Shown here: one piece after another, positions 33,194-57,977 of the stretch
Position numbering within the stretch: the first letter of the stretch is position 1
How the letters are laid out: every line of letters begins with the position of its first letter
From: Alphaproteobacteria bacterium
GTDB lineage: Bacteria > Pseudomonadota > Alphaproteobacteria > SP197
Direction: 5' to 3'
Length of the DNA: 64,000 bases
Assembly (NCBI GenBank): GCA_965228895.1
Contig: OZ245842.1
Coordinates: 4,256,001-4,320,000, forward strand
The notes under the pieces: model-generated
Database searches by the model: none
The model's input: the letters and a program-made list of their open reading frames with translations, nothing else
What the model was told of the DNA's origin: nothing
Program-made: the position numbers and the translations under genes

Positions 33194-33458
33194 TTTGCAT
33201 CCCTGGCGAAATACGCGGTGGCTTTTTTAGAATGTCGCGCTCCTCGGTCACGCGGGCGAGCTCGCGCTTCAGACGCCTGATCTCGGCATCCTTCCCGGCC
33301 TCTCCCGAAGATGCCCTCGCGTACTTCCGCTTCCAGGCGTAGAGCGAATGCTGGCTCACCCCAAGACGCTGCGAAACCTCCGCAACAGGATAGCCGCGCT
33401 CGGTGATCTGCGCCACCGCGTCCCGTTTGAAGTCCTCACTGAAATTGGCTTTACCCAT
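32988..33458 (-). CDS. IS3 OrfA
   Basis: Protein identical to 10829-11299. Confidence 0.85.
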   Translation of the reverse strand: MGKANFSEDFKRDAVAQITERGYPVAEVSQRLGVSQHSLYAWKRKYARASSGEAGKDAEIRRLKRELARVTEERDILKKPPRISPGMQSEIRVHRRASPCVLGTGDVSLPAPSSERLLCVAQAPAEQAGTRRCPPDRTHPEGLEGERQDLRLSQAS

Positions 33459-35827: not shown

Positions 35828-36696
35828 GCGGCTTGCCTCGCGCGCTCAGCAAGATTGGCCGGCATGTCGTGCAAACCCTCGGCACGCAGCAACGTTACGA
35901 AATGCTCGTCAGAGAACAGCGTACGTAGCGCCTCGCCCAGAAACGTCAGCTGATCTCGTGCAGCATCAGCCTTGGCCACGAGCTGGCGTTTTCGCTCCGC
36001 GTCTTCATGATAGGCCTTGAGGAGCATTGTCGTGGAGACCTCGTGCGCCTTGGGCCGTCGGGTAGGGTTCGCGCCCTTTCCACTACGACGTCGTCTTTCA
36101 ATCACACGCCTAGCAGCGCGGAGTTCCTTGCCGCGGAGTTTGTTGCTCTCATAGGCGCGCTGCAGTGCTGCTTGGATGTCCGTGTCATCCGCCTCGGCAA
36201 TGTCCGTGGCAATAGTGATGGGGATCTGTCCGGTCTCGACAGCAGTGAGGAGCTTGTGCTCGCCCTTCGACAATAGCCGCAGAACGTCGCGCACATAGTC
36301 AATGGAAAGGCCGGTCTTTTTGGCGATCTCGGCAAGAGAATAGCCGCGCTCTGCCAGATTGCCGATGTTCGTCAGAAGCTCTACCGCACCATGGTTTCGC
36401 CTGGCGCAGTTCTCGACCAGGCTCATGACAAGACAGTCGTCTTGTTCGCCTTCGATGACAACGGCGGGTATCACTGGTTGTCCCAACAGTTGAAACGCCT
36501 CCAGTCGTCCCTGCCCGCACACCAAGTCGTAGCCCGGGCTGTTCCTTCTGCTGCGCCTGACGGTGATTGGGCGCTTCAATCCGACCCGCTCGATACTTGT
36601 CACGATCTCGTTAAAGACCTTGAGGTTTCTGCTCCTGGGATTGATCACCGAAATCGAGTCGATCGGAATCATTTCAACCCGAAGGTTTTGGTTCAT
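35824..36696 (-). CDS. ParB/RepB-family protein
   Basis: NPR, SIERVGLKRPITV, VCGQGRLEA, SLVENCAR, HTH. Confidence 0.88.
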   Translation of the reverse strand: MNQNLRVEMIPIDSISVINPRSRNLKVFNEIVTSIERVGLKRPITVRRSRRNSPGYDLVCGQGRLEAFQLLGQPVIPAVVIEGEQDDCLVMSLVENCARRNHGAVELLTNIGNLAERGYSLAEIAKKTGLSIDYVRDVLRLLSKGEHKLLTAVETGQIPITIATDIAEADDTDIQAALQRAYESNKLRGKELRAARRVIERRRRSGKGANPTRRPKAHEVSTTMLLKAYHEDAERKRQLVAKADAARDQLTFLGEALRTLFSDEHFVTLLRAEGLHDMPANLAERARQAA

Positions 36697-38255
36697 GACA
36701 TGACCTCCATGACGTTGGTTCGGGCCGTCAGCTGAAAGAGCCCATCGAGCACCTCTGTTCGGTAGGCCTCTAAGGCGATCCAGTTGTTCTCTCTCAACCG
36801 CATGTACGGGAACGTGATCTCCGCTGTTGGGAACAGGAAGTAGTCGAGTGGAGAACGGTTAAGGGAGTCCATGCGTACAACAAGTGTAAGGTCTGACCGC
36901 AGTTCTTCATCTGGCCGTATGAGCCACTTTCTTGTCCCTTCGTCACTGGTACGGCAGCGTGCAACGCAGACATAGATCCGTATCTCATTGTTGACGCTGA
37001 GGACCGGGACATCAGTATCCTGCTCAACGCTCCCACCATTCTTCTCAATGACTTGGGTAGAGTGTGCGACGGTCTGGGATTGGACACTTCGGAGGGAAGC
37101 GGACTGTTCAAGGTGGCGGTAGTTTTTGTCGCCGTCATAGCCAACAAGCTCATAGGCTTTCCGCAAGCTGCCGAACCGTGTGTGATAGGATCTTGAACAT
37201 GGCACCTCACGGGCTCGATCGATGGAGTTGCTGGTCAGATAGCCCTGTGAATTCAGCAAGGACCTGAGTGCCTCAAGCATCTCGTCCTCGGTGTAGCGCG
37301 GTGTTCGCTCGCTTAGCTTTCTCTGTGCCGCCTCAAACAAAGAGCGCTCAACGATGGGCTCAAACGCGTTCTCGTGCTTGATCCACATGTCCTCGCGATT
37401 GCGGGTTCGGTCCGTTCCCAGTTTGAGCGACGTGCGGTTCCAAACATGGTGGCCGATATAGCGTTCGTTGTTCAGGGCCCGATTGACCGAGCCAATTGTC
37501 CACGGCTGTCCACTTGCTGTCCTGATGTTGCGCCGATTGAGCTCAGCAGCAATCTTGCTCTCTGAGAGACCCTCTTGGACGAATGCTGTGAAGATCCATT
37601 GGACCGCCTTGACCTCCCGCTTTGGACCGGGAACCAGAAGCGTTCGGTCGGAGTGCGCCGCTTTGTATTCGCCTGGCTTTAGGATGCCCTTTGGTCGACC
37701 ACGATCATCAACAACCATTCGCCTCAGGCCGAAGCCAGGCGGCCCGCCGGTGTAATAGCCAAGTATGACTAGCCGGGAGAGCCCGGCGAACACTTTGGCT
37801 GAAAGCTCCCGGCTGTACTCCGCCGCCATAGCGCGTTTGATAGTCTTAACGATGTTCGAAATCGGACTGCCGTCGTTCTCGAACAGCTCTGCGCAGTAGC
37901 GAACCTTGATGCCCTCGCGCTTGCAGATGTGTTCGTAGTAGGCGCTCTCATCGATATCCTGAAAGCGGCCCCAGCGACTGACGTCGTAAACCAGGATGAC
38001 GGAGTAGTCGGCATGGCCTGACTGAACATCCGCAAGGAGTTCTGACAACGCTTCGCGGCCGTCGAGAGTAAGGCCACTCTTTCCTTCATCAGCATAGGTG
38101 CGAACCACCTCAAGTCCGTTGCGGATGGCGAACCGGCCTATGGCCTCTTTCTGGTGAGCCGTTGAGTACTTCTGGTGTTCGGTGGACATGCGGACGTACT
38201 GGGCAGCACTGATTGTGCCACCTAGCTGCGTGAGGTCATCTGATCCTGCTGTCAT
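36693..38255 (-). CDS. Large serine recombinase
   Basis: YVRMSTEHQ, YADEGKSG, DVSRWGR, YSRELSAKV, recombinase domain. Confidence 0.92.
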   Translation of the reverse strand: MTAGSDDLTQLGGTISAAQYVRMSTEHQKYSTAHQKEAIGRFAIRNGLEVVRTYADEGKSGLTLDGREALSELLADVQSGHADYSVILVYDVSRWGRFQDIDESAYYEHICKREGIKVRYCAELFENDGSPISNIVKTIKRAMAAEYSRELSAKVFAGLSRLVILGYYTGGPPGFGLRRMVVDDRGRPKGILKPGEYKAAHSDRTLLVPGPKREVKAVQWIFTAFVQEGLSESKIAAELNRRNIRTASGQPWTIGSVNRALNNERYIGHHVWNRTSLKLGTDRTRNREDMWIKHENAFEPIVERSLFEAAQRKLSERTPRYTEDEMLEALRSLLNSQGYLTSNSIDRAREVPCSRSYHTRFGSLRKAYELVGYDGDKNYRHLEQSASLRSVQSQTVAHSTQVIEKNGGSVEQDTDVPVLSVNNEIRIYVCVARCRTSDEGTRKWLIRPDEELRSDLTLVVRMDSLNRSPLDYFLFPTAEITFPYMRLRENNWIALEAYRTEVLDGLFQLTARTNVMEVMS

Positions 38256-39356: not shown

Positions 39357-41144
39357 TCAAGTACACGAATCGTCCGGCTGTGTGCTCGTCTCGGAAGGGG
39401 CCGCAGTGGGCGGTTTATTGAGTGGCAGTAGATCGCGCCACACCTGTGGCGGGACTGGCAGGCGATTGCAACGGCAGGCGGTCAGGAGTACCGGCCAATG
39501 CCCGAGGGCAATCGCCGACAGCCTGTCGAAATGTGGGTTGGCCGCGCATTCGGCAGAGATAAAGTCTAGCGTAGCGCGCGTGCCCGATTCGACCGGGATA
39601 CCGGTCAGCGCCGCGCCGTGGTTTTCTCCACCGAGATAAACCAGCGCTTCGCTGTCCTCGTCGGGTAGCCAAGTTTGGAAGGTGCAATGCCCCAGATCAT
39701 TAGCCTTAAATGCGGCGAGCTGGTCGACCACCGCTTCGTTACCAATCGCCGTTGCCCACAGCGCGAGCAGAGGATAGAGGATGCTGCCCTCGGTCGCTTC
39801 TGTGCGATACGCCTCAGTAGTTTCTGCCGGATGCTCGACTAGATACCAATAAGACCGGTGAGTCGTCGGGTAGAGTCCGTGCGACTGAAAGGCGAAGATC
39901 GTACTGTTGGTGAGCTCTTTAATCCAATCATCGATCGCGTTCCGAAATCGGGGGCGGCTTCCCAGAAGAGTAAAGCAAAGTGCGATATCGATCGCCTGCC
40001 AGTCGCCAACCGGTGACAGTAACGCGCGGTTGTTTGCGATGATTGCAATCAGCTGCTCGCAAAGTGCATCAATCCTGCCAATGGTGTCGGCGATTATTGG
40101 GATTCGAGGCGAATCTTCAGCATCGTCGAGCACGCTTGGGACGCTGTTAGTACCCGAAGCAAACCAGACTAGCCAGAGACCACGTAGAGCAATACGGCCG
40201 ATCGTCTCAAAAAGTTTCAGGTTTACATCAATCGAGGCATGAGAACCGACCGCTGCCGAAACCGCATGTCGGACATTGGCAAAGGGCAAGATCTTCTTGC
40301 CGTAGAGTTCCTCCCATATCGCAAAATGCAGCTCGACCAAGTCGTTAAAAGCCAGACCGGCATTTTCGGATGCCTTCGACGCCTTGCCGAGATCGTCGTG
40401 CAGCATGTGCCAAACATTGAGCGTAGCGAGCTCGCTCGCCCGGTAAGGAGCCTCGACATTGTCTGCCTCGCGCGCCCAAACAAACATAATCCAAAGGCAG
40501 ATATTGATTTGGCGTGCTCGAGCCAGCCGGCTCATCGGCCGGTCTCCTGTGTCGGCGAGTAACTGTCGAATCAGCTCTGCGAAATGGCCCATTGCGATAT
40601 CGGGCTCCTCCACCATTGCGACAGCCTTCCGGAGATGTCCGCGCAGCGGCGCCGGAAGCAGCTCTTCTCGCAAAACGCCATCAAGAACCGCCTGTGCGAG
40701 ACGATCACCGTTCCATTCCTCATAGGTGATCCGAGGGGTCGTGTTGTTCTTGATGTAACCATTGACCTCAGCGCGAACCTGCTCTTCGATGTCACCGCCG
40801 AAGCACAGGCAGATCGCGATCGGGAGCTCTGCGTATTCGACAGGAATTCGGGTGGCGATGTAGACGTCGCGGATCTCGTCGAGCGAGGGTCGAAGGCTCT
40901 GCGGCGAGGCGGTGTTCCAGCTGTTGCGGTCAAGGTCACCCGATTTTACCGAGAAGAGATGGACACGCTTTACACCGTCCCGTCCTGGCCCGACAGCGGC
41001 GACGTCAACACCGTACTGGCGGGTGCCAATCGCTGGCCGCGAAAACACGGTGAAGCCCATCTCGGTTAGCAGGTCGGGCAACACCGCGTCCAGCTCGCCG
41101 CGCTCGCGCAAGGATGCCAGATACTCGCGGATGACCAACTTCAT
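39357..41144 (-). CDS. Putative defence protein with N-terminal Mrr-like PD-(D/E)XK domain
   Basis: ELDAVLPDLLTEMGF..QYGVDVAAV..LFSVK, then a helical body. Confidence 0.7.
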   Translation of the reverse strand: MKLVIREYLASLRERGELDAVLPDLLTEMGFTVFSRPAIGTRQYGVDVAAVGPGRDGVKRVHLFSVKSGDLDRNSWNTASPQSLRPSLDEIRDVYIATRIPVEYAELPIAICLCFGGDIEEQVRAEVNGYIKNNTTPRITYEEWNGDRLAQAVLDGVLREELLPAPLRGHLRKAVAMVEEPDIAMGHFAELIRQLLADTGDRPMSRLARARQINICLWIMFVWAREADNVEAPYRASELATLNVWHMLHDDLGKASKASENAGLAFNDLVELHFAIWEELYGKKILPFANVRHAVSAAVGSHASIDVNLKLFETIGRIALRGLWLVWFASGTNSVPSVLDDAEDSPRIPIIADTIGRIDALCEQLIAIIANNRALLSPVGDWQAIDIALCFTLLGSRPRFRNAIDDWIKELTNSTIFAFQSHGLYPTTHRSYWYLVEHPAETTEAYRTEATEGSILYPLLALWATAIGNEAVVDQLAAFKANDLGHCTFQTWLPDEDSEALVYLGGENHGAALTGIPVESGTRATLDFISAECAANPHFDRLSAIALGHWPVLLTACRCNRLPVPPQVWRDLLPLNKPPTAAPSETSTQPDDSCT

Positions 41145-42910
41145 CGCGCGATCCGTTCGGCACGGAAGACGCGCAGCTTATAGTCGAGGTTGAACGGTTC
41201 GAGCGTGTCGAGCCGCGGCAATTCGACGCTGTGGCTTACTGCGCCTAGCTTCATCTCAAGGCGCTCACTTTGTCCGCTGGGCCGCTCGAAGTAGCTGATC
41301 GAGCGGTTGCCGTAGAGCAGTACCGATCGTGAGACGAGCGACGCGAAAACCGATTTGTCTTCTGCTGCTTTGTGTGCAACCTGAAACGACTGGAGTCGCC
41401 GTTGATTCTCGATTAGCTTTTCGCGCTCGGAAGGCTGCAGCTCGCGGACATGGCCGATTGCACGCAGACCTTCTAGGTAGCCTTCGAGCCGCTCAAGAAG
41501 GGTTAGAACTAAAGGCGTTGCCGCGTCAGCCTCATCCTTTGCTTGTTCAGTGAGCCATTCGCTAAGTTCGCCCGGAAAGTTGAGTAGCAAAGGGTCGAAA
41601 AGATGCTCCCCAATTGACTCGGCGACCGCTTCCGGCGCGGCGCGTATCAAGGACAGTAGGATTGAGGCGACAGTGATCGGATGGAGGAACAGATGGCCGA
41701 TAGTTTTTCTAGCAAGGAACACCGCCTCTTCACCCGAAAGTGCCTTAGCGGCGAAGTCGATCCGAAACGTCAGGGGATCACCGTGGACCTGACTTATGAG
41801 TCCGCGGGCCGCGTCACCAAGCGGCCGCTTACCACTTAACAACCATTTGACTATCACATGGGCGAGTCGATCCGGCTCGAGCTGCAGTAGAGCATGGGCG
41901 CTGCCGCTCAGCACTTCGAAATCATGAAACTCGATATGAGCGACAAGGAGTGGCTCGAGCAGCGCCAGCGCCTCATTGAGCCGGCCCTTTCTAGTAAGTG
42001 CGCCGACGGCGTGGTCGATGTTCTGGAGCGTACCGATACTCTCAACACGGTCCTTAAGCAGGATGTTGATCAGTGCAGCAACGATCGCAGGCGACAGATC
42101 CTCGCCGCGAAGCCAAAGCGTCTGTGACAGGCGATGAATTGTCTCGTCCCCAGCGAAACTCGCCGCGGTCGCAATGATATTGAGCACCTCGGCCTCGTTC
42201 GCGCCGTGTGTACATAGCGCAATATCGACTGCCGCAGACGCGATGACTCCGCGCAGGTCGTCATCGACCGCTACGTCGATTGCGGTCTGTAACGCGGCGA
42301 GCGCCTTAGGCGCGAACGCAGATTCGCCGGTGAAGTCAAAGCTCCCGATCGCCGCCGCAGCGCCAAGTTGGGCAACCTTAGTTGGTTCTGCCAGATAGGT
42401 GATCATACGATCAAGCGCCGCGCCGGCATCCATACGTTCTAAGGCTTGGAGCGCCAACATCACAAACACTGCATCGTCAAGGCGGTCCGTGTCGATCAGG
42501 CCGAGTGTTTGCTCGGCGCGATCACCCTTCGCCGCCCAGTCGCGAAAGGCAGCATTGGGCCTGCCCGCGACACCGTCATTGCCCGCCGCCGCGACAAGCG
42601 CGCGGACCACGGCCATCATTGGCTCGACCTCAGCCTCAAGTTCGGGGATTACCTGAACGTAGAAATGCTGGACAGCGAAGAAGTCATAGTCCTCGCTTCG
42701 TCCGGCTTCGAGCGCAAGTGCGGGTGCTAGCATGTCGACGGTGCCAGCATTGTGCGCGGCCACTGCGGCCTCTCGTAGCGCCACCGCCTCGGGATCATTG
42801 CGACCACCCAGGATCGTCTCCGTGATCAGTTTCGGTAACGTGCCCGTCTCATCGTGCCTTACTATGTCGTCAATAGATCTTGACCTTGCCCCCGATTTGT
42901 CCTCGTTCAT
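41141..42910 (-). CDS. Alpha-helical (ARM/HEAT-like) protein coupled to the nuclease gene
   Basis: 589 aa Ala/Leu-rich; ATGA overlap with the downstream gene. Confidence 0.7.
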   Translation of the reverse strand: MNEDKSGARSRSIDDIVRHDETGTLPKLITETILGGRNDPEAVALREAAVAAHNAGTVDMLAPALALEAGRSEDYDFFAVQHFYVQVIPELEAEVEPMMAVVRALVAAAGNDGVAGRPNAAFRDWAAKGDRAEQTLGLIDTDRLDDAVFVMLALQALERMDAGAALDRMITYLAEPTKVAQLGAAAAIGSFDFTGESAFAPKALAALQTAIDVAVDDDLRGVIASAAVDIALCTHGANEAEVLNIIATAASFAGDETIHRLSQTLWLRGEDLSPAIVAALINILLKDRVESIGTLQNIDHAVGALTRKGRLNEALALLEPLLVAHIEFHDFEVLSGSAHALLQLEPDRLAHVIVKWLLSGKRPLGDAARGLISQVHGDPLTFRIDFAAKALSGEEAVFLARKTIGHLFLHPITVASILLSLIRAAPEAVAESIGEHLFDPLLLNFPGELSEWLTEQAKDEADAATPLVLTLLERLEGYLEGLRAIGHVRELQPSEREKLIENQRRLQSFQVAHKAAEDKSVFASLVSRSVLLYGNRSISYFERPSGQSERLEMKLGAVSHSVELPRLDTLEPFNLDYKLRVFRAERIAR

Positions 42911-43086: not shown

Positions 43087-46086
43087 CTACTTAATGCCGT
43101 ACTTAAGACGGCGCTTTACGAACGCAGGCTGCGACCCCTCCAGCACGTCAACTATGCGCCGATTCATCACAGGATTTTCGATCGAACCTGTTTCATAGGA
43201 GAACTTGTAGTTCTCAGACTTCTCAAGCTTCACGTAGACGATCTGCTCGGCATCGGCTCCAACTGCCAAGTTAGGGTTGTGCGTAACCAGCACGACCTGC
43301 CTGTGTTTCTTGGCATCGCGAATGCAATTCGCCAGCACTCTAAATATGCTCTCGTTGTCCAGATTGTCCTCAGGTTGATCAATGATGAGCGGCGTGTTCT
43401 TACGATCGAGCTGGAGATAGAAGATCAAGAGAAGCAGGCCTTTTTCTCCTGGCGAGAGCTCATTCAGGTTCTTCCCGCCGAGGCGCAACTCGTACCGCGA
43501 CGACAAGTAGTCGAGCGAGAACAGGAAATCGTATAGTTCTTTGGCATCGTGCGCTTGATCCGAAATTAGGAGGTCATCTCCATTGTGACGTCTCATACTT
43601 GCTAGGAGTTGCTCACAAAAGCCAATGACGGCTTCAAAATCATCCCAGTTTGTTTCACGGACGAGCCGGGCAAGTTCCTGCTGCGCATCCTGATCGTTCT
43701 TAAAGGGACCACGTCTGCGCTGATTGATCTGGTTAAGGAACTCACGCCGAAACTCTCGATCCACAATGAAGGAAGCCTCGATCTCGATCTCAAATCCGGC
43801 AGTCCGAACGGCCTGAAGACGCTCCTCAACGCTATTCTTCAGATCACGATAGAACTGGAGAACCTGACTCTTGCTCCGATATATTTCCTGAACAATTTCG
43901 CTTCGTTCTGCAACACGGTCGACAAGAGTAGTGGCTAGGGTTTCATCGACATACTTCAAACGGTCTTTTAGCCAGAGAAGTGTTTCGGGCTTTGGTTCTT
44001 CATCGTTTCCCGCCACCTCAAGGCGCTTTGCCTTCCATGCTGCGAACCGTTCGACATACGACTGGTAACGACGTTGTGGCGTACTCAATTGCTCTTTCAA
44101 ACGTTCAATCTCGGATTCAATAAACTTGTAGGCGTTGCGAAGGTCAGGAATCGTAGCCAGGCTTGAGAATGCCGTTTCTAGAGAAAACGCTAGCTCACTC
44201 TCAGCCTCAAGAGCGCTGATCCTTGCCTGCAACTCCTCAATCTTTGTCTGCACGGGTGCTGGATCGATCTCAAACTTGACCACATCCGAAACGGCGAGCT
44301 CTAAAGCGGCAAGTGGCTCTGTCAACTCTTCGATGCCTTCTCGCGTTTGCGAGTCGAGGCTCGTCAGCCTCTCCTTTAAGGAGACCGCAGATTGAAGGTT
44401 AGTCTTTAGCGTAGTGGTTTCGGCGATCCTCTGCTGCCGAGCCTCACTCACCGATGCGAGTAGTTTTGTGAGGCGGGCGACTTCCGCCGCAAGCCCTTTT
44501 TGCGCGTCGGATTCTGTATCTGGCTTCGCAACTTCCTTTGGTACAGCATCATCCAGGGCCTTCAGCTCTTCTGTCTTGGCCTCAATCTGCCCGATCAGCC
44601 GCTTCCGAAAATGTGGTGAACTTTGGTCCTCAAGGTCAACAATCTCGACGTTCAGCTCTCTAAGTCGCCTCTTCAGTGAGCTTATCTCCTGTTTGCTTTG
44701 TAGTGTCTTTGCCTCCTCCAGCTGTGAAAATGACGACGTTCCAAGCTTCTCTGTCTCCTCAACATGTGAGAAGACGACTTCCTCAATCTCTTTCCGAAAC
44801 TGCTCTATCTCGATTTCGTTCGTAAGTTGCTCAAAATAGTTCTGCGGCAGATATCGAACTGTCTCCGGCCTATCGCGGTCACAATGATCGATTAAATGTT
44901 TCTCTTCTCTCTTACTGGTATGCCATGTGATCGCCGCCTTGAAATTTTCCGCGTAGCCGCGCTGGCGAAACTTCTTGCTCTTGGAATCGTCAGCAAGGAA
45001 CGAAAAGTAATCTTCCTGATGGCTCTCGCCCAAGAGACCTAAGATATCGACAATGGCACTCTTGCCGCTGCCTTTGTTTCCGATGATAGCAGTCAGCTCC
45101 GGGTTTAGAGGTAACTCAACTCCTTTGAACCATCGCCCATTTGCCTCACCGTACCCGTCAACTTGGTCGATCTGCAGAAGACTGAGAAACTTGGTGCCGT
45201 CCTGTTCCTGGCGGACGATAACATCGGGTTCTGAGCCGATGAATACACGACTCTCCGGTTCATGGCATATCTGCTTCAGTCCCACAAACGTTGTATCTGC
45301 CTTGATCCAGGTAGGAGGAAATCCCGCAACATTACCGCCCAGACGCTCAAGGTCTTCAAAACTGTGAGCGTCACATCCGGATACAACAGGCTTGGGGGCA
45401 GACTCGCCTTCGGCATAGCGGTCTGCTCTTAGAAAAAAGGCCTTGTTACCAGCATTCCCGAAGAAGAGGTCACTTGCCCTATCGATGCGGTCCGCAAGAT
45501 TGACTTTCCGCGGGGACTCATTGTCGGTCGACCGCAGACCATTGTTGTTTGCAGGGAACGCAACGAGATAAGGTTTTGTATCGCCGAAAGTCTCATCAAG
45601 AGCCTCGGTTAAACTATCGAGACTGACGGTCGCGGCCATTATCTGCTCTTGAGTTTGCAGATCTGAACAGCGCTGACGAACGCTTGCATCGTCAATCGAC
45701 TGAGTATCGAGGTTGGTAAGAAATCGACCGATCCGGTCTTCGTTCGTAACATCAGGATCATTGTCGAAGATCACATGAATGTCCGGGTGGCTTCCGTCCT
45801 TGCTTATCGATTCAGAAAGCCGGAACTCAATATTCACGAAAAAAACCGATTTGGATTCAGCGTACTTCTCTGCATACCGCCTGCGTAGCTCGAAGAAGCT
45901 GTCACAACTAAAGTAGTCTGTTACGCCGAATACCTGAACCGGCGATGCTTCGAGTGTGTCAATGAATCTGTCCCAGACTGCATCATCAACCCCGCCATAG
46001 GCATTGTTCAATCTTGTTCCAGGTGCGTGCAGGTGGAGGTCCCAACGTCTCCACAAAGAACCATTGCTGGCAGCTTTGCTATCCAT
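43087..46086 (-). CDS. PHP-domain plus SMC-like ABC ATPase (TrlF/Ppl-like) defence protein
   Basis: WDLHLH, TDY, CDAH; GNKGSGKS, PQ, LSPGE, IIDQPEDNLD, THN; long coiled coil. Confidence 0.85.
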   Translation of the reverse strand: MDSKAASNGSLWRRWDLHLHAPGTRLNNAYGGVDDAVWDRFIDTLEASPVQVFGVTDYFSCDSFFELRRRYAEKYAESKSVFFVNIEFRLSESISKDGSHPDIHVIFDNDPDVTNEDRIGRFLTNLDTQSIDDASVRQRCSDLQTQEQIMAATVSLDSLTEALDETFGDTKPYLVAFPANNNGLRSTDNESPRKVNLADRIDRASDLFFGNAGNKAFFLRADRYAEGESAPKPVVSGCDAHSFEDLERLGGNVAGFPPTWIKADTTFVGLKQICHEPESRVFIGSEPDVIVRQEQDGTKFLSLLQIDQVDGYGEANGRWFKGVELPLNPELTAIIGNKGSGKSAIVDILGLLGESHQEDYFSFLADDSKSKKFRQRGYAENFKAAITWHTSKREEKHLIDHCDRDRPETVRYLPQNYFEQLTNEIEIEQFRKEIEEVVFSHVEETEKLGTSSFSQLEEAKTLQSKQEISSLKRRLRELNVEIVDLEDQSSPHFRKRLIGQIEAKTEELKALDDAVPKEVAKPDTESDAQKGLAAEVARLTKLLASVSEARQQRIAETTTLKTNLQSAVSLKERLTSLDSQTREGIEELTEPLAALELAVSDVVKFEIDPAPVQTKIEELQARISALEAESELAFSLETAFSSLATIPDLRNAYKFIESEIERLKEQLSTPQRRYQSYVERFAAWKAKRLEVAGNDEEPKPETLLWLKDRLKYVDETLATTLVDRVAERSEIVQEIYRSKSQVLQFYRDLKNSVEERLQAVRTAGFEIEIEASFIVDREFRREFLNQINQRRRGPFKNDQDAQQELARLVRETNWDDFEAVIGFCEQLLASMRRHNGDDLLISDQAHDAKELYDFLFSLDYLSSRYELRLGGKNLNELSPGEKGLLLLIFYLQLDRKNTPLIIDQPEDNLDNESIFRVLANCIRDAKKHRQVVLVTHNPNLAVGADAEQIVYVKLEKSENYKFSYETGSIENPVMNRRIVDVLEGSQPAFVKRRLKYGIK

Positions 46087-47791: not shown

Positions 47792-48139
47792 TCATCCCCT
47801 CGTCTCCCGGGCCTGACGATCCGTGGGTACGGAGGGGTCGGTGCGGCGGAGCTTCGAGCGATACCAGCTCACCGATGCCAGGCTGGTCGAGGCGCCGGGG
47901 AACTTATCCTTGATCAAATCGAGGACCTCCTGATTGGTCTTGCCGGCCTCCAGCTCACGCCTGGCCGTCTCCCCGACCGACTTCCATCGCTCCGTAAAAA
48001 GGTAGTGATTCAGCGCCTCTCGGACGGCCTCGCTGACGGAGACCCGCGTGTCCTCGGCCATGTCGTGGAGGGCATCGACCAGTTCCTGGGGCAGGGTCAC
48101 CGTGACCCGGCGCATGTGATCGCTATCACCTCTGGTCAT
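47792..48139 (-). CDS. Ribbon-helix-helix (CopG-type) regulator with C-terminal helical domain
   Basis: RRVTVTLPQELVDAL..SVSEAVREAL. Confidence 0.75.
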   Translation of the reverse strand: MTRGDSDHMRRVTVTLPQELVDALHDMAEDTRVSVSEAVREALNHYLFTERWKSVGETARRELEAGKTNQEVLDLIKDKFPGASTSLASVSWYRSKLRRTDPSVPTDRQARETRG

Positions 48140-48159
48140 ACTAGTCCTCTCCTACATGA

Positions 48160-48188
48160 TTGACTCATAAGATCGCATACATCATATT
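48160..48188 (+). promoter_or_regulatory. Sigma70-like promoter of the MTase-terminase operon
   Basis: TTGACT-17 bp-CATATT. Confidence 0.6.
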
Positions 48189-48228
48189 GAGTATGAGCGA
48201 AGAAGACAAGGCCTATGGAGTTGGACAC

Positions 48229-49521
48229 ATGCGCGACCTTAGCGTGACCGAGATACCCATTGCAGGGCTTGTGCCCTATCACCGCAACGCGCGGACACAC
48301 TCGAAGAAGCAGTTGCATCAGATCGCGGACTCGATCCGGACCTTCGGCTGGACCAACCCGATCCTGATCGACCGCGAGGGTGGCGTGATCGCCGGCCACG
48401 GCCGATTGGAGGCTGCCAAGCTGCTGGGCCTGAAGGCCGTCCCGACGATCCGTATCGAGGATATGAGTGAGGAGCAGAAGCGGGCCTACATCCTGGCCGA
48501 CAACAAGCTCGCCGAGAACGCCGGCTGGGATAACGAGATCCTTGCGCTGGAGCTGAAGGACCTGATCGACCTCGACCTTGAGATCGACATCACGTCAACC
48601 GGGTTCGAGATGGGCGAGATCGACGTCCTGATCGAGGGTCTGAACTCGTATACCGGACCGGACCCGGATGACGATATCCCGCCGGTCGACCCGGACCAAC
48701 CAAATGTCAGCGAGCTCGGCGAGCTCTGGCTGCTGGGCGATCACCGGCTGCTCTGCGGCAATGCCCTGGACGCTAAGATCTACGCGCGGCTGCTAGATGG
48801 CGAGCAGGCCCAGATGGTGTTCACCGACCCGCCCTACAACGTGCCCGTCGACGGTCATGTCAGCGGCTTAGGCTCGGTCAGGCATGCCGAGTTCGCGATG
48901 GCATCGGGCGAGATGTCGGAAGAGGCGTTCACGGCGTTCCTGAAGACCGTGTTCGGCCTCATGGTCGATCACAGCGTCGACGGCGCGATCCACTTCGTCT
49001 GCATGGACTGGCGCCATCTCTATGAGCTGCTGACTGCCGGCCGCGCCGCCTACAGCGAGCTGAAGAACCTCTGCGTCTGGAACAAGACGAATGGTGGCAT
49101 GGGGTCGTTCTACCGGTCCAAGCATGAGCTGGTCGCGGTGTTCAAGGCCGGCACCGCGCCACACGTCAACAACGTCGCGCTGGGCAGCCATGGCCGATAT
49201 CGCACCAATGTCTGGGACTACGCCGGTGCCAATGCGCTGGGCAACGGCCGCGACGAGGCGCTTGCCATGCACCCGACGGTGAAGCCAGTCGCCATGGTTG
49301 CCGATGCCATCCTCGACTGCTCGACCCGCGGCGGCCTGGTGCTCGACGCGTTCTCAGGCTCCGGCAGCACCATCCTGGCCGCCGAACGGACCGGACGGCG
49401 GGCGGCCGCGATCGAGATCGAGCCGCACTATGTCGACGTGGCGATCAGGCGCTTCGAAGCCTCGACCGGCATCGACGCGGTCGAGGCCAGGAGCGGCCTC
49501 AGGTTCCGGGAGCTGACATGA
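48229..49521 (+). CDS. ParB-N domain fused N6/N4 DNA methyltransferase
   Basis: NARTH, IAGHGRLEAA, ADNKL; FTDPPYN, HPTVKP, DAFSGSGST. Confidence 0.92.
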   Translation: MRDLSVTEIPIAGLVPYHRNARTHSKKQLHQIADSIRTFGWTNPILIDREGGVIAGHGRLEAAKLLGLKAVPTIRIEDMSEEQKRAYILADNKLAENAGWDNEILALELKDLIDLDLEIDITSTGFEMGEIDVLIEGLNSYTGPDPDDDIPPVDPDQPNVSELGELWLLGDHRLLCGNALDAKIYARLLDGEQAQMVFTDPPYNVPVDGHVSGLGSVRHAEFAMASGEMSEEAFTAFLKTVFGLMVDHSVDGAIHFVCMDWRHLYELLTAGRAAYSELKNLCVWNKTNGGMGSFYRSKHELVAVFKAGTAPHVNNVALGSHGRYRTNVWDYAGANALGNGRDEALAMHPTVKPVAMVADAILDCSTRGGLVLDAFSGSGSTILAAERTGRRAAAIEIEPHYVDVAIRRFEASTGIDAVEARSGLRFRELT

Positions 49522-49618
49522 GGATCTAACGGCGGGCGATGACCGGCCCGCCGAGAGGCAGGGCGCATACGAGCAACGACAGTTGGATTGACACCCAGAG
49601 CAAGCTGAGGACACGACG

Positions 49619-50116
49619 ATGGCTAAAAACCCAAACAGTAAGTCAGGCGACGAAGACGTCGGCTACCGCAACCCGCCGAAGGAGCACCGATGGCAGAAGG
49701 GCACATCAGGCAACCCAAAAGGCAGGCCGAAGGCATGTCAGAACTTCGAGACCGACGTCAAGGAGACCCTGAAAGAGCAGGTGACGGTCACCGAGAACGG
49801 CACGAAGAAGACGGTAAGTGCGCAGAAGGCCAGTCTGTTGCGCCTGAAAGAGAAGGCGCTCAAAGGTGATGCCCGGTCGCTCGACACGCTCCTGGATCTG
49901 GCGCGCATCCACAACAGCGAAGACCTAGCCGCGCAGGCCGAAGAGGCGCTCGACCCGTTGGATCAGGAGATCCTCGACGACTACTTCGAGCGGCGACTGG
50001 CACAGGAGGAGAGGCGACGGGCCGCCGAGGTCACCGAACCGCCGGTCGATGGCGATCACGAAGAAGAGAACCACGAAGACGATGAGGAGGACCCCGATGC
50101 CTGGCTCCTTGGCTGA
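49619..50116 (+). CDS. DUF5681 protein (terminase small subunit-like position)
   Basis: VGYRNPPKEHRWQKGTSGNPKGRPK. Confidence 0.8.
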   Translation: MAKNPNSKSGDEDVGYRNPPKEHRWQKGTSGNPKGRPKACQNFETDVKETLKEQVTVTENGTKKTVSAQKASLLRLKEKALKGDARSLDTLLDLARIHNSEDLAAQAEEALDPLDQEILDDYFERRLAQEERRRAAEVTEPPVDGDHEEENHEDDEEDPDAWLLG

Positions 50117-51548
50117 CCGTCAGAGGCTCACCACACTCCTGCGAAAGGACCTGAATGCGTTCGTGCGCAAGGCGTTCAATACTGTGTCGCCAGGCGACAC
50201 GTACCTGAAGAACTGGCACATCGAGGCGATCACTTATGAGCTCTCCCGCTGCCTGGATGGCGACAACACCCGGCTACTGATCACGCAACCGCCGCGCTCG
50301 CTGAAATCTATCTGCAGCTCGGTCGCGTTCGTCGCCTGGGCGCTAGGCCACAATCCCAAACTGAGGTTCATCTGCGTGAGCTACTCCCAGGACTTCGCCG
50401 GTACGCTTGCCCGGCAGTTCCGCCAGGTGGTCGACAGCATCTGGTACAGGTCGCTGTTCCCCAGGATGCGGCTGACCAAAGACACCGGCACTGAGTGCGT
50501 CACCAGCGAGGGTGGTGGGCGCCTGGCGACCTCGATCGGCGGTACGCTGACCGGCCGCGGCGCCGACATCATCATCATCGACGATCCGCTGAAGGCCGAA
50601 GACGCTGCCTCAGACACTGCCCGAAAGGCCGTGATCGACTGGTACACCTCAACGCTCGTCACGCGTCTCAACGACAAGGAGCGCGGCGCCATCATCGTCG
50701 TCATGCAGCGACTACACGAGGAGGACCTGGCCGGTCACTTGTTGGAGCACCAGGATTGGCACCACCTCGACCTGCCGGCAATCGCGATCGAGGACCAGGA
50801 GGTCCGGATTGGGCCGGACCACGCCGACGTGCACATCCGCAAGGAAGGCGAACTGCTACACCCCGAGCGCGAGCCGTTATCGTCGCTCGAGCGCATCAAG
50901 GAGGAGATCAGTAGCCTGAGGTTCTCAGCCCAGTACCAGCAGCGGCCGGTGCCGTTGGGCGGCAACCTCGTCAAACGCGACTGGTTCAAGACCTACGACA
51001 CGCCGCCTGACTTGGGTCAAGGGAGCCGGATCGTCCAGAGCTGGGACGTCGCGACGACCGTGAGCGATACGAACAACTGGTCGGTGTGCACCACTTGGCT
51101 CATCAAGCAGAAAACGTTCTACTTGCTGGATGTCTGGCGCGGCCGCCTCGAATATCCGGACCTGAAGCGCAAGGTGATCGCACTGCAGGACGAACACGCC
51201 GCGCGGACGGTGCTGATCGAGAAGGTCAATCTTGGTGTAAGTTTAGTCCAGGACCTCAGAGTCGACAGCCCGGCCGGATTCCCGAATCCCATAGGGATCG
51301 TGCCGGACGGCGACAAGGAGACCCGGATGGAGGCGCAGAGCGCTAGGATCGAAGCGGGGCATGTCGTGTTACCCAAGAATGCGCCCTGGCTCGATACGTT
51401 CTTGAACGAACTGTTGGCATTCCCCTACGGGCGCCACGACGATCAGGTGGACAGCGTGTCGCAGTTCCTGAACTGGGCCTGGCTGCGTGACGGCAGAGGC
51501 ATGCGACTCGCGATCGTGCCGGGAGAAGCGATCCAACTGAACTACTAG
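50097..51548 (+). CDS. Phage terminase large subunit
   Basis: QPPRSLKS, LTGRGAD, IIIDDP, MQRLHEEDL; SWDVA, LIEK, HDDQVD. Confidence 0.9.
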   Translation: MPGSLADRQRLTTLLRKDLNAFVRKAFNTVSPGDTYLKNWHIEAITYELSRCLDGDNTRLLITQPPRSLKSICSSVAFVAWALGHNPKLRFICVSYSQDFAGTLARQFRQVVDSIWYRSLFPRMRLTKDTGTECVTSEGGGRLATSIGGTLTGRGADIIIIDDPLKAEDAASDTARKAVIDWYTSTLVTRLNDKERGAIIVVMQRLHEEDLAGHLLEHQDWHHLDLPAIAIEDQEVRIGPDHADVHIRKEGELLHPEREPLSSLERIKEEISSLRFSAQYQQRPVPLGGNLVKRDWFKTYDTPPDLGQGSRIVQSWDVATTVSDTNNWSVCTTWLIKQKTFYLLDVWRGRLEYPDLKRKVIALQDEHAARTVLIEKVNLGVSLVQDLRVDSPAGFPNPIGIVPDGDKETRMEAQSARIEAGHVVLPKNAPWLDTFLNELLAFPYGRHDDQVDSVSQFLNWAWLRDGRGMRLAIVPGEAIQLNY

Positions 51549-51675
51549 GCGCATACGAATGCGCTACTTCAATGGGCTTTAGGGTTACAACGGCCCACAT
51601 CGATGCGCCCAGTCGGGCAGTTGGACTTTGCGGCCAAAGCAAGCGTCAGTGGCACTCGGAAGAAGGAGTGCCGGC

Positions 51676-51906
51676 ATGCGCAAACGCCAACGCAAGATCA
51701 TCACGCGACTGTTCGCAACCGCAACATCGTTGACAGAAGCTGCCCATGAAGCCTCCTGCGATGGTCAGGCGCACGATGCCGACACAGAGCAATATCAAGC
51801 GGCTGTGCGCCGCATTCTGTCGGCGACCCACGACATTAGGGTGCTGGCTGAGGTGATCGGCGAGTTGGTCGACCAAATGGACAATCCCGGAAGCACTCGG
51901 CCCTGA
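51676..51906 (+). CDS. Small hypothetical protein
   Basis: AAGGAG SD; preceded by one copy of the 26-bp repeated motif. Confidence 0.55.
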   Translation: MRKRQRKIITRLFATATSLTEAAHEASCDGQAHDADTEQYQAAVRRILSATHDIRVLAEVIGELVDQMDNPGSTRP

Positions 51907-52070
51907 AGTCCCGATGGAAAACGACTGGACAATGGCGGCCTAGCAAGCGTCCATGGTCGAACTGAAAGACCGCCTTCCTCTCGATCGCGCCCTGCCTGGC
52001 CAAGCCCGGAGGGCCTCAACAGGTGACAACGCTGGTATCGGACCGGTGCGACACATGAGAGGAAACGACC

Positions 52071-52340
52071 ATGTCATCTGCGACCACCAAGAAGGCCACC
52101 ACATCACGGGATCAAACCGCATCTGATCCCGTCGAGACCAAGACTGAAAAGGTGATCAAACTGCTGCGCCGCAAGAACGGCGCTACCATCGCCAACATCC
52201 AGAAGGCCACCGGCTGGCAGCCCCACAGCGTCCGCGGGTTCCTGTCGGGGACACTGAAGACGCGAATGGGCCTCGTCATTAAAGGCGAAACAGACGCAAA
52301 GGGCGTGCGCCACTATCGTATTGCCAGGCCTAGCAAGTGA
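52071..52340 (+). CDS. DUF3489 winged-HTH protein
   Basis: TK..VIKLLRR.NGATI..ATGWQPHSVRGFLSG. Confidence 0.88.
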   Translation: MSSATTKKATTSRDQTASDPVETKTEKVIKLLRRKNGATIANIQKATGWQPHSVRGFLSGTLKTRMGLVIKGETDAKGVRHYRIARPSK

Positions 52341-52789
52341 TGTCGGCGCAACCAGTCAATATCGTGGCGCTTTCGGCGATGGGCCGAGACACACTGCTCG
52401 ATCTCTGGCGTCAGATTCATGACCACGACCCACCGCGCAACGCCAGCCGTCCGTTCCTGCGATACTGTATTGCCTACCGGCTTCAGGAGAGGGAGCACGG
52501 CGGGATAGACCCGGCGACACATCGTAAGCTCCATCGCCTGGCGATCGGCGGAGAGTACGCTGGATCTGCAGCACGGTCGCGAACCGCCATCAGACCGGGA
52601 ACGCGGCTTATCCGCACCTGGCAAGGTCGACCCTATGAGGCGACGGTTGTCGAAAATGGGTTCATGTTTGAAGGCAAGCGCTACCGATCGCTCTCGGCGG
52701 TCGCCCGCGCCATCACAGGAACCCGCTGGAACGGCTGGCGGTTCTTCGGTGTCGACCCCGGCCAACAAGGTAGCAAGAAGTGTCGCTGA
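52337..52789 (+). CDS. DUF2924 protein
   Basis: AYRLQE, PGTRLIRTWQG, SLSAVARAITGTRWNGWRFFG. Confidence 0.9.
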   Translation: MMSAQPVNIVALSAMGRDTLLDLWRQIHDHDPPRNASRPFLRYCIAYRLQEREHGGIDPATHRKLHRLAIGGEYAGSAARSRTAIRPGTRLIRTWQGRPYEATVVENGFMFEGKRYRSLSAVARAITGTRWNGWRFFGVDPGQQGSKKCR

Positions 52790-54513
52790 TGGCGGTCAAG
52801 CGACCCAAGGCGACATGCGCCATCTACACCCGCAAATCGTCCGAAGAGGGGCTCGATCAGGCCTTCAACTCACTCGATGCCCAGCGCGAGGCCGGCGAGG
52901 CCTTCATCCATAGCCAGACCCATGAGGGCTGGCGTGTCCTGTCAGATCGCTATGACGACGGTGGCATCTCCGGTGCCACTATGGAACGCCCAGCCCTGAA
53001 GCGACTTCTGGCTGATATCGAGGCCGGCAAGATCGACGTTGTGGTGGTCTACAAGGTCGACCGGCTGACCAGGGCCCTCTCCGACTTCGCCAAGATGATC
53101 GAGATCTTCGACCGCCATGGCGTCTCGTTCGTCTCGGTCACCCAGCAGTTCAACACCACCACGTCCATGGGACGGTTGACCCTCAACGTGTTGCTGTCGT
53201 TCGCCCAGTTCGAGCGTGAAGTCACCGGTGAGCGCATCCGTGACAAGATCAGGGCGTCGAAGGCCAAGGGTATGTGGATGGGCGGCAGACCGCCGCTCGG
53301 CTTCGACGTCCGGGATCGCAAGTTGGTGGTCAACCCCGGCGAAGCGAAACAGGTGCGCTGGATCTTCCGGCGCTACCTGGACTTGGGTGCGATCAACCGC
53401 CTTCGCAGCGACGTCGTGAGCCAGGACATCACCAGCAAGGTCTACACCAGCAAAGCCGGGATCAGTTCCGGTGGCGGACCCTTCGGGCGTTCGGCCCTCC
53501 ATCGCTTGTTGGGCAACCACCTCTATGTCGGCGAGGTCGCCCATCGGGGCAACGTCTATCTGGGTGAGCATGAGGCGATTGTAGATCGCGAGCTCTGGGA
53601 CAAGGTACAGGCCTTGCTGGCAGAGAAACGGCAATGCGAACACGCCGGTCCGTCGACACGCCAGGTCAGCCTTCTCAAGGGCCTGATAGTTGATGCCAGC
53701 GAAAGGCGCCTGACCCCGATCCATGCCACGAAGAACGGCAAGCGCTATCGTTACTACGTCTCAAACTGCATTGTCAGCGGCTCGATCTGCGGAGCCGACG
53801 ACCGAACATGGCGCATCCCTGCTCACGAGATCGAGCAGCTGGCCATCAGCCAAATCAAAGACCTGCTCAGAGATCGCAGCAGGCTCTATGACGTTCTAAA
53901 GGCCGTGGATGCTTCGCTCGCGACAGCCGAGGCGACCTACGACCATCTGGCCGAGGTCGCCGATCGCTGGGACGAGCTTGTCCACCGCGACCAGCGCATC
54001 ATCCTCAGACACCTGCTGTCTCGCGTCACCATCGCCGATGATCAGGTCGAGGTTCACGTCCGTCCCGATGCGATCGCTCATATCGGTGTTTCAGGGGCCG
54101 ACAGCTTAATCGCTGCCAGGCCTGACGGGCGCGGCCGAACCGAGCCGGTGGTTCTGACGGTGCCCGCACGCCTGACGCGACGCGGAAGAGAACTCAAGCT
54201 CATCGTAACCGGTGAAGAGGTGGACGGCAGATTGCCGGACACCGACCTGATGGTCGCTGTGGCACGCGCCCGTCACTGGCTCGACCTCCTGATGACAGGC
54301 AAGGTCGCATCAATCAGGGATCTCGCCCTCAGCGAGAGGAAGCTCGAACGTCATATCGGCCAGCATCTAAGGCTCGCCTTTCTGGCACCCGACATCGTCG
54401 AAGCGATCCTTGATGGTAGGCAGCCACCTGAGCTCTCGCTACGCAAGCTCGTCAGGACCGACCCGCCGCTCGAATGGGGCGAACAGCGTCGACGGCTCGG
54501 ATTTGCTGGGTAG
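52789..54513 (+). CDS. Large serine recombinase (probable island integrase)
   Basis: YTRKSSEEG, YDDGG.SG, YKVDRLTR, FAQFERE, RYYVS. Confidence 0.93.
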   Translation: MAVKRPKATCAIYTRKSSEEGLDQAFNSLDAQREAGEAFIHSQTHEGWRVLSDRYDDGGISGATMERPALKRLLADIEAGKIDVVVVYKVDRLTRALSDFAKMIEIFDRHGVSFVSVTQQFNTTTSMGRLTLNVLLSFAQFEREVTGERIRDKIRASKAKGMWMGGRPPLGFDVRDRKLVVNPGEAKQVRWIFRRYLDLGAINRLRSDVVSQDITSKVYTSKAGISSGGGPFGRSALHRLLGNHLYVGEVAHRGNVYLGEHEAIVDRELWDKVQALLAEKRQCEHAGPSTRQVSLLKGLIVDASERRLTPIHATKNGKRYRYYVSNCIVSGSICGADDRTWRIPAHEIEQLAISQIKDLLRDRSRLYDVLKAVDASLATAEATYDHLAEVADRWDELVHRDQRIILRHLLSRVTIADDQVEVHVRPDAIAHIGVSGADSLIAARPDGRGRTEPVVLTVPARLTRRGRELKLIVTGEEVDGRLPDTDLMVAVARARHWLDLLMTGKVASIRDLALSERKLERHIGQHLRLAFLAPDIVEAILDGRQPPELSLRKLVRTDPPLEWGEQRRRLGFAG

Positions 54514-54748
54514 ATCGCTGCCTCGTTCGTCCACTATCCATCCAATCTGACGACATCCACCTCGCCGAAAGTCCCTCCACAATCGGGCCAACCGGAGACT
54601 GGCGGTGGATGACGGCGAGAGGCGCGATGACCGCAGTCTCCGCACTCACGCCAATGCACTTTCCACATTCGCAAAGGCCCGGCGTACGGGCGCTTCGCCG
54701 GCCGATACGACAACACCGAAAGCCGTTCCAGGTCATCTAGTTGGAGAC

Positions 54749-54838
54749 TGGCGGAGGGAGCGGGATTCGAACCCGCGAGGGGCTTACACCCCAACACGCT
54801 TTCCAGGCGTGCGCCTTAAACCACTCGGCCATCCCTCC
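54749..54838 (-). tRNA. tRNA-Ser(GGA)
   Basis: 90 nt GGAGGGATGGCCGAGTGG...CTGGAAA...long variable arm...GGTTCGAATCC...CCA. Confidence 0.97.
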
Positions 54839-57732: not shown

Positions 57733-57977
57733 GGGTTTCCGTTTAGAGCAGATCCTGTCTTGATGGAATCGCTTCGCGATTCCGTCAAGGCGGGTGAATC
57801 TGCTCTACTCATAGATGGAGAGCGGATCGTGGTCCGCTCTAGGGCAGCGAAGGCGGAACATAAGCGGCCATGGCCCCTGGACGCAACCACGAGGGATAAA
57901 TGGCAACAAGGCGGTTCACCAGCGGGGTTCAAAGGCCCATGGTGGTACACGACCAAACCAACGGGAGCGCCAAGCCG

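Follow-up and report, generated by a model that had tools for sequence, protein, structure and literature searches.

Phage satellites of the Staphylococcus aureus pathogenicity island (SaPI) and phage-inducible chromosomal island (PICI) type are small, at about 10-15 kb, and feature a tyrosine integrase, an AlpA or Stl-type regulator and a primase-replicase. In this study, we examined a 64-kb stretch of an alphaproteobacterial genome (the window), in which a genomic island of ~59 kb ends beside a tRNA-Ser(GGA) gene with a module of packaging and integration genes: a ParB-fused DNA methyltransferase (ParB-MTase), a DUF5681 protein, the terminase large subunit (TerL), a 92-aa open reading frame (ORF), DUF3489 and DUF2924 proteins, and a large serine recombinase (LSR). 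On balance, we favour the reading that this module forms the backbone conserved throughout a family of integrative islands that target tRNA genes, and that this family stems from temperate phages and is packaged in the heads of helper phages. With SaPIs and PICIs, the PICI-like tycheposons and some integrative mobile elements encapsidated in virions (VEIMEs), the island shares its integrated state, an integrase of its own, an incomplete set of virion genes, defence or adaptive cargo, and phage-derived packaging genes beside the integration module. SaPI/PICI-type satellites have only the terminase small subunit (TerS), mostly integrate by tyrosine integrases and usually encode a primase-replicase, whereas the island has TerL too, uses a serine recombinase, yielded no replication gene, shows no primase or AlpA family in its scanned ORFs and measures ~59 kb, and so falls outside that type. 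Capsid-forming PICIs (cf-PICIs) have a portal gene; the island shares terL with them but is not of their kind, having no capsid or portal gene among its scanned ORFs or, for the families searched, anywhere in the genome. In the SatelliteFinder report, cf-PICIs are the only family for which terL is listed as core, together with capsid and head-tail connector genes (PMC10085698), and the passages that describe tycheposons and VEIMEs name small-subunit terminase or capsid genes and no large terminase (PMC9618062; bioRxiv 10.1101/2020.12.28.424599). [quoted passage not shown]

The two halves of the module each have counterparts in phages. In the ParB-Tls locus of Paracoccus prophages and in Leptospira phage LE3, a ParB-fused or ParB-adjacent methyltransferase likewise lies upstream of the terminase, and DUF5681 overlaps the start of TerL; in our island, too, the stop codon of DUF5681 overlaps the TerL start, and in LE3 a ParB-like gene stands upstream of the DUF5681 homologue. 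LE3 differs in the portal gene that follows its TerL, as do phage loci from IMG/VR in their portal and head genes, since the island family has the recombinase module or cargo in that place instead. A DUF2924 protein ahead of a large serine recombinase is also found in Acidithiobacillus phage AcaML1 and Wolbachia phage WO, of which the former has, by its annotation, both a complete head module and a terminase of the lambda type (gpNu1/gpA), and the latter is described as having a packaged phage genome of ~65 kb (PMC10299305). A full-text literature search, with slight coverage of subscription journals and without supplements, returned no description of this gene set.

Feature coordinates are collected in Table 1, and all positions are those of the window unless marked as genome positions (G000:C1). 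A previous reading of this locus from its sequence alone (the sequence-only reading) had proposed a capsid-less packaging and integration unit within one co-directional gene run. Every gene that it named is present where it had been placed, but the plus-strand run (Pfam, PHROGs) extends only from 48160 to 54513, as the ribbon-helix-helix (RHH) gene to its left lies on the opposite strand. We consider the RHH gene a non-conserved part, because among 160 related loci an upstream homologue was found in L105 only. That the serine recombinase ends beside a tRNA holds as well: tRNA-Ser(GGA), the sole tRNA gene that ARAGORN detects in the window, lies 236 nt from the end of the LSR gene and faces it with its 3′ end. 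With Resolvase catalytic and Recombinase domains in 577 aa, against ~500-600 aa expected, the LSR is of the phage integrase type. TerL, for which the database's own form has 483 aa and starts at 50097, is of the Terminase_6 type by its Terminase_6C match, a weak Terminase_6N match and phrog_38 over residues 22-483, and is predicted to be catalytic, with the ATPase in the N-terminal and an RNase H-like nuclease in the C-terminal part. In agreement with the intact ATPase and nuclease motifs ascribed to it, its motif-like stretches PPRSLKS, IIIIDDP, SWD and HDDQVDS contain residues invariant across 14 homologues (an alignment at 53-76% identity), which we read as putative P-loop, Walker B and nuclease acidic residues. 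PHROGs places DUF5681, DUF3489 and DUF2924 each in a phage family without an assigned function.

The absence of portal, capsid, tail, primase, relaxase and type IV secretion system genes that the sequence-only reading had asserted was confirmed by Pfam for the 54+15 ORFs scanned in the window and for the scanned ORFs from there to the left end, small ORFs being partly covered. Lacking structural families among these ORFs, the island does not qualify as a complete or recently degraded prophage; nor, without relaxase, coupling-protein or type IV secretion genes among the Pfam-scanned ORFs (the origin of transfer was not searched), does it qualify as an integrative and conjugative or integrative and mobilizable element. 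It does show three features of a phage satellite, taken in the general sense of a non-phage element with means to favour its own packaging in particles made by a helper, namely its own integrase, an incomplete virion gene set and a packaging gene (TerL); no pac or cos site was identified.

To place the module among its relatives, we used a profile of 14 TerLs, which matched 221 loci in species-representative genomes and at least 559 in IMG/VR; from each source the 80 best were taken, with up to 10 kb on either side. Loci were scored by tblastn with the window proteins and by hidden Markov models (HMMs) for which phage loci of this set supplied the portal, capsid, protease and MuF sequences, and a locus with ParB-MTase and/or DUF5681 directly upstream of TerL was called a triad locus. 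Triads were found in 123 of the 160 loci (74 genome, 49 IMG/VR), and 79 of these 123 also had DUF2924 or LSR within the fetched DNA, so that the arrangement occurs far more often than chance. Head genes lay within 10 kb of a single triad locus (L025), beyond the LSR and in a separate tyrosine-integrase element. Flanks of 10 kb cannot exclude virion genes farther off in other elements; for the window, the check took in 47 kb of island as well as the whole genome. Consequently, modules of this kind are not usually pieces of complete prophages, and the proposed capsid-less packaging and integration unit is conserved as such. By comparison, head genes were present in 18 of 21 IMG/VR loci with neither triad nor LSR, and in the triad-less phage loci portal (HK97 or Mu type), MuF, protease and capsid genes start 27-150 nt after TerL (Pfam).

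The neighbourhoods of the related loci point in the same direction. When the first four ORFs after TerL were examined in 35 genome loci without an adjacent LSR (134 ORFs, Pfam), the only virion gene was a sub-threshold portal fragment in L027, a locus scrambled by insertion sequences (IS); otherwise, TerL is followed there by chromosomal genes, YqaJ/ERF/Rad52 recombination genes, tyrosine integrases, Dcm-Vsr-EcoRII systems and transposases. No virion genes were seen in 74 ORFs upstream of 10 evenly sampled loci (Pfam). The PF04860 portal is absent from 14 of the 21 host genomes of LSR-adjacent loci, and among the other seven only that of L025 has it near the module. Of 51 LSRs with flank data, 17 have a tRNA gene within 700 nt downstream (13 Ser, 2 Met, 1 Ala, 1 Val), which in every case turns its 3′ end towards the LSR and usually lies 180-360 nt away; the recombinase family is thus habitually found at tRNA 3′ ends.

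TerL is under purifying selection in these loci. An intact TerL ORF of at least 380 aa is present in 137 of the 160, and in unsaturated pairs (dS 0.10-0.60; Nei-Gojobori) the dN/dS ratio was 0.07-0.29 for TerL and 0.13-0.32 for DUF5681; for ParB-MTase it was 0.08-0.34 in pairs with dS >0.1. These values were used in place of an all-pairs comparison, which is near saturation (dS 1-1.5), as is that of the window TerL with its relatives (dN/dS 0.19-0.24), and near-identical Acidobacteriota copies (dS 0.03-0.07) gave noisy ratios of 0.29-0.68 that are uninformative. The relaxed selection on TerL that would have spoken against a working module is therefore not seen.

Together with the survey, this bears on the simplest alternative, namely that the module is the end of a decaying prophage which has lost its head, tail and lysis genes and whose remainder is functionless and on its way out. 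The module is clearly of phage origin, given the ParB-like, DUF5681, TerL and portal genes of LE3 and the DUF2924-LSR pairs of AcaML1 and WO; furthermore, a third island of this genome, described below, has lost TerL, and L027 is scrambled by IS elements. Against decay, 123 loci from Alphaproteobacteria, Gammaproteobacteria, Acidobacteriota, Myxococcota and other groups break off at the same place, immediately behind TerL; the ORFs are both intact and under purifying selection; and one genome holds two complete copies with different cargo whose TerLs are 54% identical. The survey largely refutes this alternative, and we regard it as very improbable.

The second of these copies lies at genome 322,271-328,161 beside a tRNA-Met gene and comprises ParB-MTase, DUF5681, TerL, DUF3489, DUF2924 and LSR. 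Within the wider region of module and cargo (322,271-345,000), the cargo includes an OLD-TOPRIM ATPase with a UvrD helicase, which we read from their Pfam domains as Gabija-like, as well as a PIN_12 protein, a STAND NTPase of 1296 aa and a protein with a RES domain. A third low-GC island, which has no TerL, extends from tRNA-Ser(CGA) at 875,546 to ~933,600: at one end are LSR, DUF2924, DUF3489 and a copy (61% identical) of the 92-aa ORF, and at the other, ~55 kb away, a ParB-MTase (58%) and a degenerate DUF5681. The genome thus has three paralogous islands at as many tRNA genes. It follows that cargo may be held either before ParB-MTase or between TerL and the recombinase module, and from the third island that TerL can be lost while the island stays, as would be expected if TerL serves transfer and not maintenance.

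In the complete, one-contig genome, we found no match to the portal families PF04860, PF05133 and PF05136 or to the HK97 capsid family PF05065. The PF04860 and PF05065 searches were positive in a control Caulobacter that bears a gene transfer agent (GTA), while a search for Mu-type portals was uninformative, the control genomes being silent. A resident helper prophage of the searched portal and capsid types, or an RcGTA-like agent, is therefore not present, and a helper would have to come from outside. The sequence-only reading had named GTA heads as an alternative to those of a helper phage, an option that this result weakens, and a GTA helper in this genome is unlikely. Taken as a whole, that reading stands in part: its capsid-less packaging and integration unit is upheld, neither of the two refuting conditions accessible to computation (residence mostly in complete prophages, relaxed selection on TerL) holds, and its GTA variant is weakened.

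Helper heads are one of several routes by which such a module might serve transfer. It could instead package the neighbouring chromosome in situ (lateral transduction), draw on a capsid-forming satellite as partner, or process DNA for vesicle or conjugative transfer. One case for a partner is L025 (L184:6104-15409, on a Marinicaulis metagenome-assembled contig), where a separate element of ~9 kb follows directly after the island LSR with, in order, an AAA_25 protein, DUF5677, HK97 capsid, S78 protease, portal, tyrosine integrase and tRNA-Ser(GGA); a terminase-less element with head genes thus stands in tandem with a head-less terminase island at tRNA-Ser(GGA), and their gene sets are complementary. 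A portal fragment and a tyrosine integrase also lie beside TerL in L027, and the packaging genes of our island are oriented towards the attachment (att) site and the chromosome. Yet tandem pairing was found in one of 123 triad loci, plus the scrambled non-triad L027; for the families searched, neither capsid nor portal genes occur in the present genome, and no relaxase gene is found among the Pfam-scanned island ORFs. We think such routes quite unlikely.

Returning to packaging in helper heads, we infer that the island probably moves in the capsids of other phages. Upon infection by, or induction of, a helper phage, the recombinase would excise the island as a circle; DUF5681 and TerL would recognise and cut its DNA, dock on the portal of the helper procapsid and fill helper heads; ParB-MTase would mark the packaged DNA against restriction in the next host, where the LSR would reinsert the island at a tRNA 3′ end. 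The nearest phage TerLs sit in MuF-containing head modules, which are typical of headful packaging, and for this reason headful packaging is suggested here; if so, an island of ~59 kb would call for a helper whose head holds roughly that much DNA. More tentatively, one might see in these islands a distinct, cross-phylum class of satellites, which would bring a whole terminase holoenzyme (TerS-like DUF5681 with TerL) and a packaging-coupled methyltransferase but no capsid, take over the empty procapsids of unrelated helpers, and thereby have islands of up to ~60 kb with metal-resistance or defence cargo transduced at high frequency and reinserted by an LSR family specialised on tRNA 3′ ends; in some genomes, terminase-less elements that form capsids and lie beside them in tandem at one tRNA may be their partners. 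We regard this broader proposal as possible, with less confidence than the reading on which it builds.

The assignment of the accessory proteins rests on their position, their domains and their company. We take DUF5681 to be the candidate small terminase subunit, a role suggested by its place in the TerS slot, as in LE3, and by its conserved basic N-terminal arm, rich in Gly, Pro and Lys (...SGNPKGRPKG...), which in the AlphaFold2 model (predicted local distance difference test, pLDDT, 82) is followed by a hairpin and three helices. DUF5681 occurs in three INPHARED records, and TerL matches 2736 of the 50,697 phage records there, the best at 37.6% identity. ParB-MTase stands upstream of TerL in most related loci. 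A study of Paracoccus prophages describes 36 ParB-fused methyltransferases, every one upstream of terminase genes, and cites the proposal that ParB directs DNA modification during packaging (PMC6536676). As a constant partner of the recombinase, DUF2924 immediately precedes the LSR gene, both in related loci and in the phages AcaML1 and WO; DUF3489 accompanies the two in many, though not all, loci. The AlphaFold2 model of DUF2924 (pLDDT 86) has a helical and a beta-rich domain, for which a PDB profile search gave only noise (E>=0.15) and a Foldseek search of the model nothing at E<=0.001. Copies of the 92-aa ORF are found elsewhere in the genome at 878513-878788 (61% identical, beside another DUF3489-DUF2924-LSR set, that of the third island) and at 908934-909188 (55%).

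The island continues ~4.5 kb to the left of the window, and GC content drops from ~0.62 to 0.51-0.59 between approximately genome 4,250,000 and window 47,000. Its left end, estimated from gene content and GC, falls at about genome 4,251,200-4,252,000, after ABC-transporter genes and before an IS110 transposase. At the right junction, similarity to a same-genus genome without the element (G001) stops within ~10 bp of the tRNA 3′ end. A second genome of the genus (G002) shares the non-coding tail at this tRNA and retains there a recombinase remnant of 205 aa, and in a relative whose flank is 97% identical the site is occupied by a DUF2924-LSR pair of 86% identity; among close relatives, the tRNA-Ser(GGA) site is thus subject to turnover. 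The left flank of G001 is non-syntenic, and the 20 kb to the left of the window are poorly conserved in both G001 and G002, so that synteny gave no left boundary and the left end is approximate only. Two candidates were dismissed in the course of this comparison: a single short match left of the window, considered as a clue to the left end, is an IS fragment, and the genes for 467, 145 and 500 aa left of tRNA-Ser in G002, considered as a diverged triad, are by Pfam a GMC oxidoreductase and unknowns.

Several observations weigh against packaging of the island in helper heads. At ~59 kb, it is far larger than known satellites, and no recognisable replication gene was found in it. No att direct repeat was found nearby when 400 nt around the tRNA were compared with the genome (blastn-short), and the presumed left-end region shared nothing beyond chance with the right junction; the exact left end was not found either; a missing repeat is, however, expected of a serine recombinase, whose crossover site is only 2 bp. 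For DUF5681, similarity to a solved small terminase was not detected: a PDB profile search gave no match at E<=1, and fold searches with its model gave none at E<=0.001 (Foldseek) or at Z>=5 (VIA-align, wide); its best VIA Z was 4.3, and the TerS of NV1 at Z 3.2 lies within noise. The structural-gene HMMs, built from few phage loci of the same data set, missed the portal fragment of L027. In a quick, midpoint-rooted FastTree, whose root and direction of change are not established, the window TerL groups with that of L042 (74% identical, at the same tRNA-Ser(GGA)), and three well-supported, portal-linked phage clades are interleaved with island clades, so that island TerLs do not form one clean lineage. 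No excision, circular form, packaging or helper was seen; four public runs showed no joint or loose end relevant to the att site, but they are assembled contigs and blind to rare junctions. Finally, in 44 of the 123 triad loci the fetched DNA holds no LSR module, and ordinary chromosomal genes flank some of these, so that the triad may have a use of its own.

That last point leads to the view that the triad is mainly a weapon, in which island TerL and DUF5681 would compete with or poison phage packaging, by cutting DNA or occupying portals, and so protect the host population, with transfer incidental or absent. The LSR-less loci fit such a role, and in Rhodobacteraceae the triad-only loci are under strong purifying selection (dN/dS 0.07-0.13). 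The triad also sits among defence cargo, here an Olokun system and in the second copy an OLD-like ATPase with UvrD, PIN, STAND and RES proteins, and sampled relatives have a DUF7008/Eco57I-type methylase, a NERD-kinase and SNF2 helicases nearby. Interference with helper packaging is known from satellites (PMC11389934). On the other hand, neither TerL nor DUF5681 matches any PADLOC model; a TerL with, as its sequence predicts, full ATPase and nuclease parts, next to a packaging-linked methyltransferase, exceeds what interference needs; and many triad-only loci may have an LSR beyond the 10-kb flank, as do L070, L079 and the third island of this genome. Overall, we judge a primarily defensive triad unlikely and continue to favour an island backbone packaged by helpers.

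Table 1. Features of the island and its integration site (window positions)
Feature	Position	Strand	Evidence
Copper and mercury resistance cargo, IS3 pair, second serine recombinase with two ParB/RepB genes	1-38255		Pfam
Olokun pair: OloB 39357-41144, OloA 41141-42910	39357-42910	-	PADLOC OloB 7e-206, OloA 8.6e-99
SMC/AAA ATPase, 999 aa, defence type	43087-46086	-	Pfam AAA_21, SMC_N, AAA_15; weak PADLOC mad3, Ppl, AriA
Ribbon-helix-helix (CopG/Arc-like) regulator, divergent from packaging operon	47792-48139	-	Pfam RHH_1 1.4e-10; PHROG repressor families
ParB-N domain fused to N6/N4 DNA methyltransferase	48160-49521	+	Pfam ParB_N 5e-7, N6_N4_Mtase 1.2e-26; phrog_498 4.6e-126; PADLOC MTase_II 5.9e-93
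DUF5681 protein, candidate small terminase subunit	49619-50116	+	Pfam PF18932 6.4e-23
Terminase large subunit (TerL)	50097-51548 (longest ORF from 50049)	+	Terminase_6C 2.8e-11; phrog_38 7.8e-115
Small ORF, 92 aa, family-less	51628-51906	+	No Pfam, PHROG or PADLOC match
DUF3489 protein	52071-52340	+	Pfam 1.4e-23
DUF2924 protein	52337-52789	+	Pfam 5.7e-42
Large serine recombinase (LSR, integrase), 577 aa	52780-54513	+	Resolvase 4.5e-39, Recombinase 7.2e-12; phrog_95 (integrase) 1.8e-100
Non-coding tail holding right junction (attR)	54514-54748		Comparison with same-genus genomes
tRNA-Ser(GGA), integration target	54749-54838	-	ARAGORN

The cargo to the left of the module combines metal resistance with defence (Table 1). 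Pfam assigns copper chaperones, a P-type ATPase, a multicopper oxidase, Sco and Dsb proteins and a mer operon among 54 window ORFs and the ORFs just left of the window, and OloA and OloB, neighbouring genes with a 4-nt overlap of their ORFs, make up a full Olokun pair. Two inverted copies of an IS3-family element at 10829-11969 (+) and 32318-33458 (-), with identical 291-aa transposase ORFs (third-position GC, GC3, 0.83), bracket ~20 kb of the copper and mercury resistance genes in the manner of a composite transposon inside the island. A second LSR (520 aa) followed by two ParB/RepB-like genes occupies 34955-38255 (-) and may be a nested or older integrative unit. Near the right junction, the 12-nt direct repeat GGAGACTGGCGG occurs at 54596-54607 and 54744-54755, 148 nt apart; the second copy of GGAGACTGGCGG covers the last bases of the tRNA-Ser 3′ end, the repeat is poorly conserved in G002, and it may be due to chance or be the trace of an earlier junction. 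Beyond the tRNA, a stretch of ~57 nt at ~57743-57800 recurs with 93-95% identity at about ten or more other places in the genome and at many in same-genus genomes, resembling repetitive extragenic palindromic or miniature inverted-repeat transposable elements.

Some further observations concern variants of the module elsewhere. In four Rhodobacteraceae loci (L052, L054, L070 and L073), TerL is immediately followed by Vsr, a Dcm methylase and a restriction system of EcoRII or MvaI type, and in L070 a DUF3489-DUF2924-LSR set follows 9.4 kb downstream, which shows a cargo slot between TerL and the recombinase module. A marine-metagenome contig (run X4, record 24) aligned to 48796-54776 with part of ParB-MTase and then with the 92-aa ORF through the LSR; the spacing between these matches is ~1.07 kb as against 2.4 kb in the window, and a variant without DUF5681 and TerL may exist. 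Among the IMG/VR loci (L101-L180), most contigs with this TerL clade are capsid-less island fragments of 4-13 kb, which were probably called viral through TerL.

It has long been asked by what route large genomic islands travel when they lack conjugation genes (PMC11389934). Capsid-less islands with a complete terminase under selection give a testable route, in which motor and specificity would come from the island and the shell from any phage that is compatible. The family is common: DUF5681 is present in 48 of 301 sampled genomes of the class (a tally that includes G000 and one unpublished genome, G277), and there are 221 TerL relatives in species-representative genomes and at least 559 in IMG/VR, where they are filed as viral. 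Its cargo includes metal-resistance and anti-phage genes. If this route is real, virus-detection pipelines that rely on TerL miscount such islands as phages.

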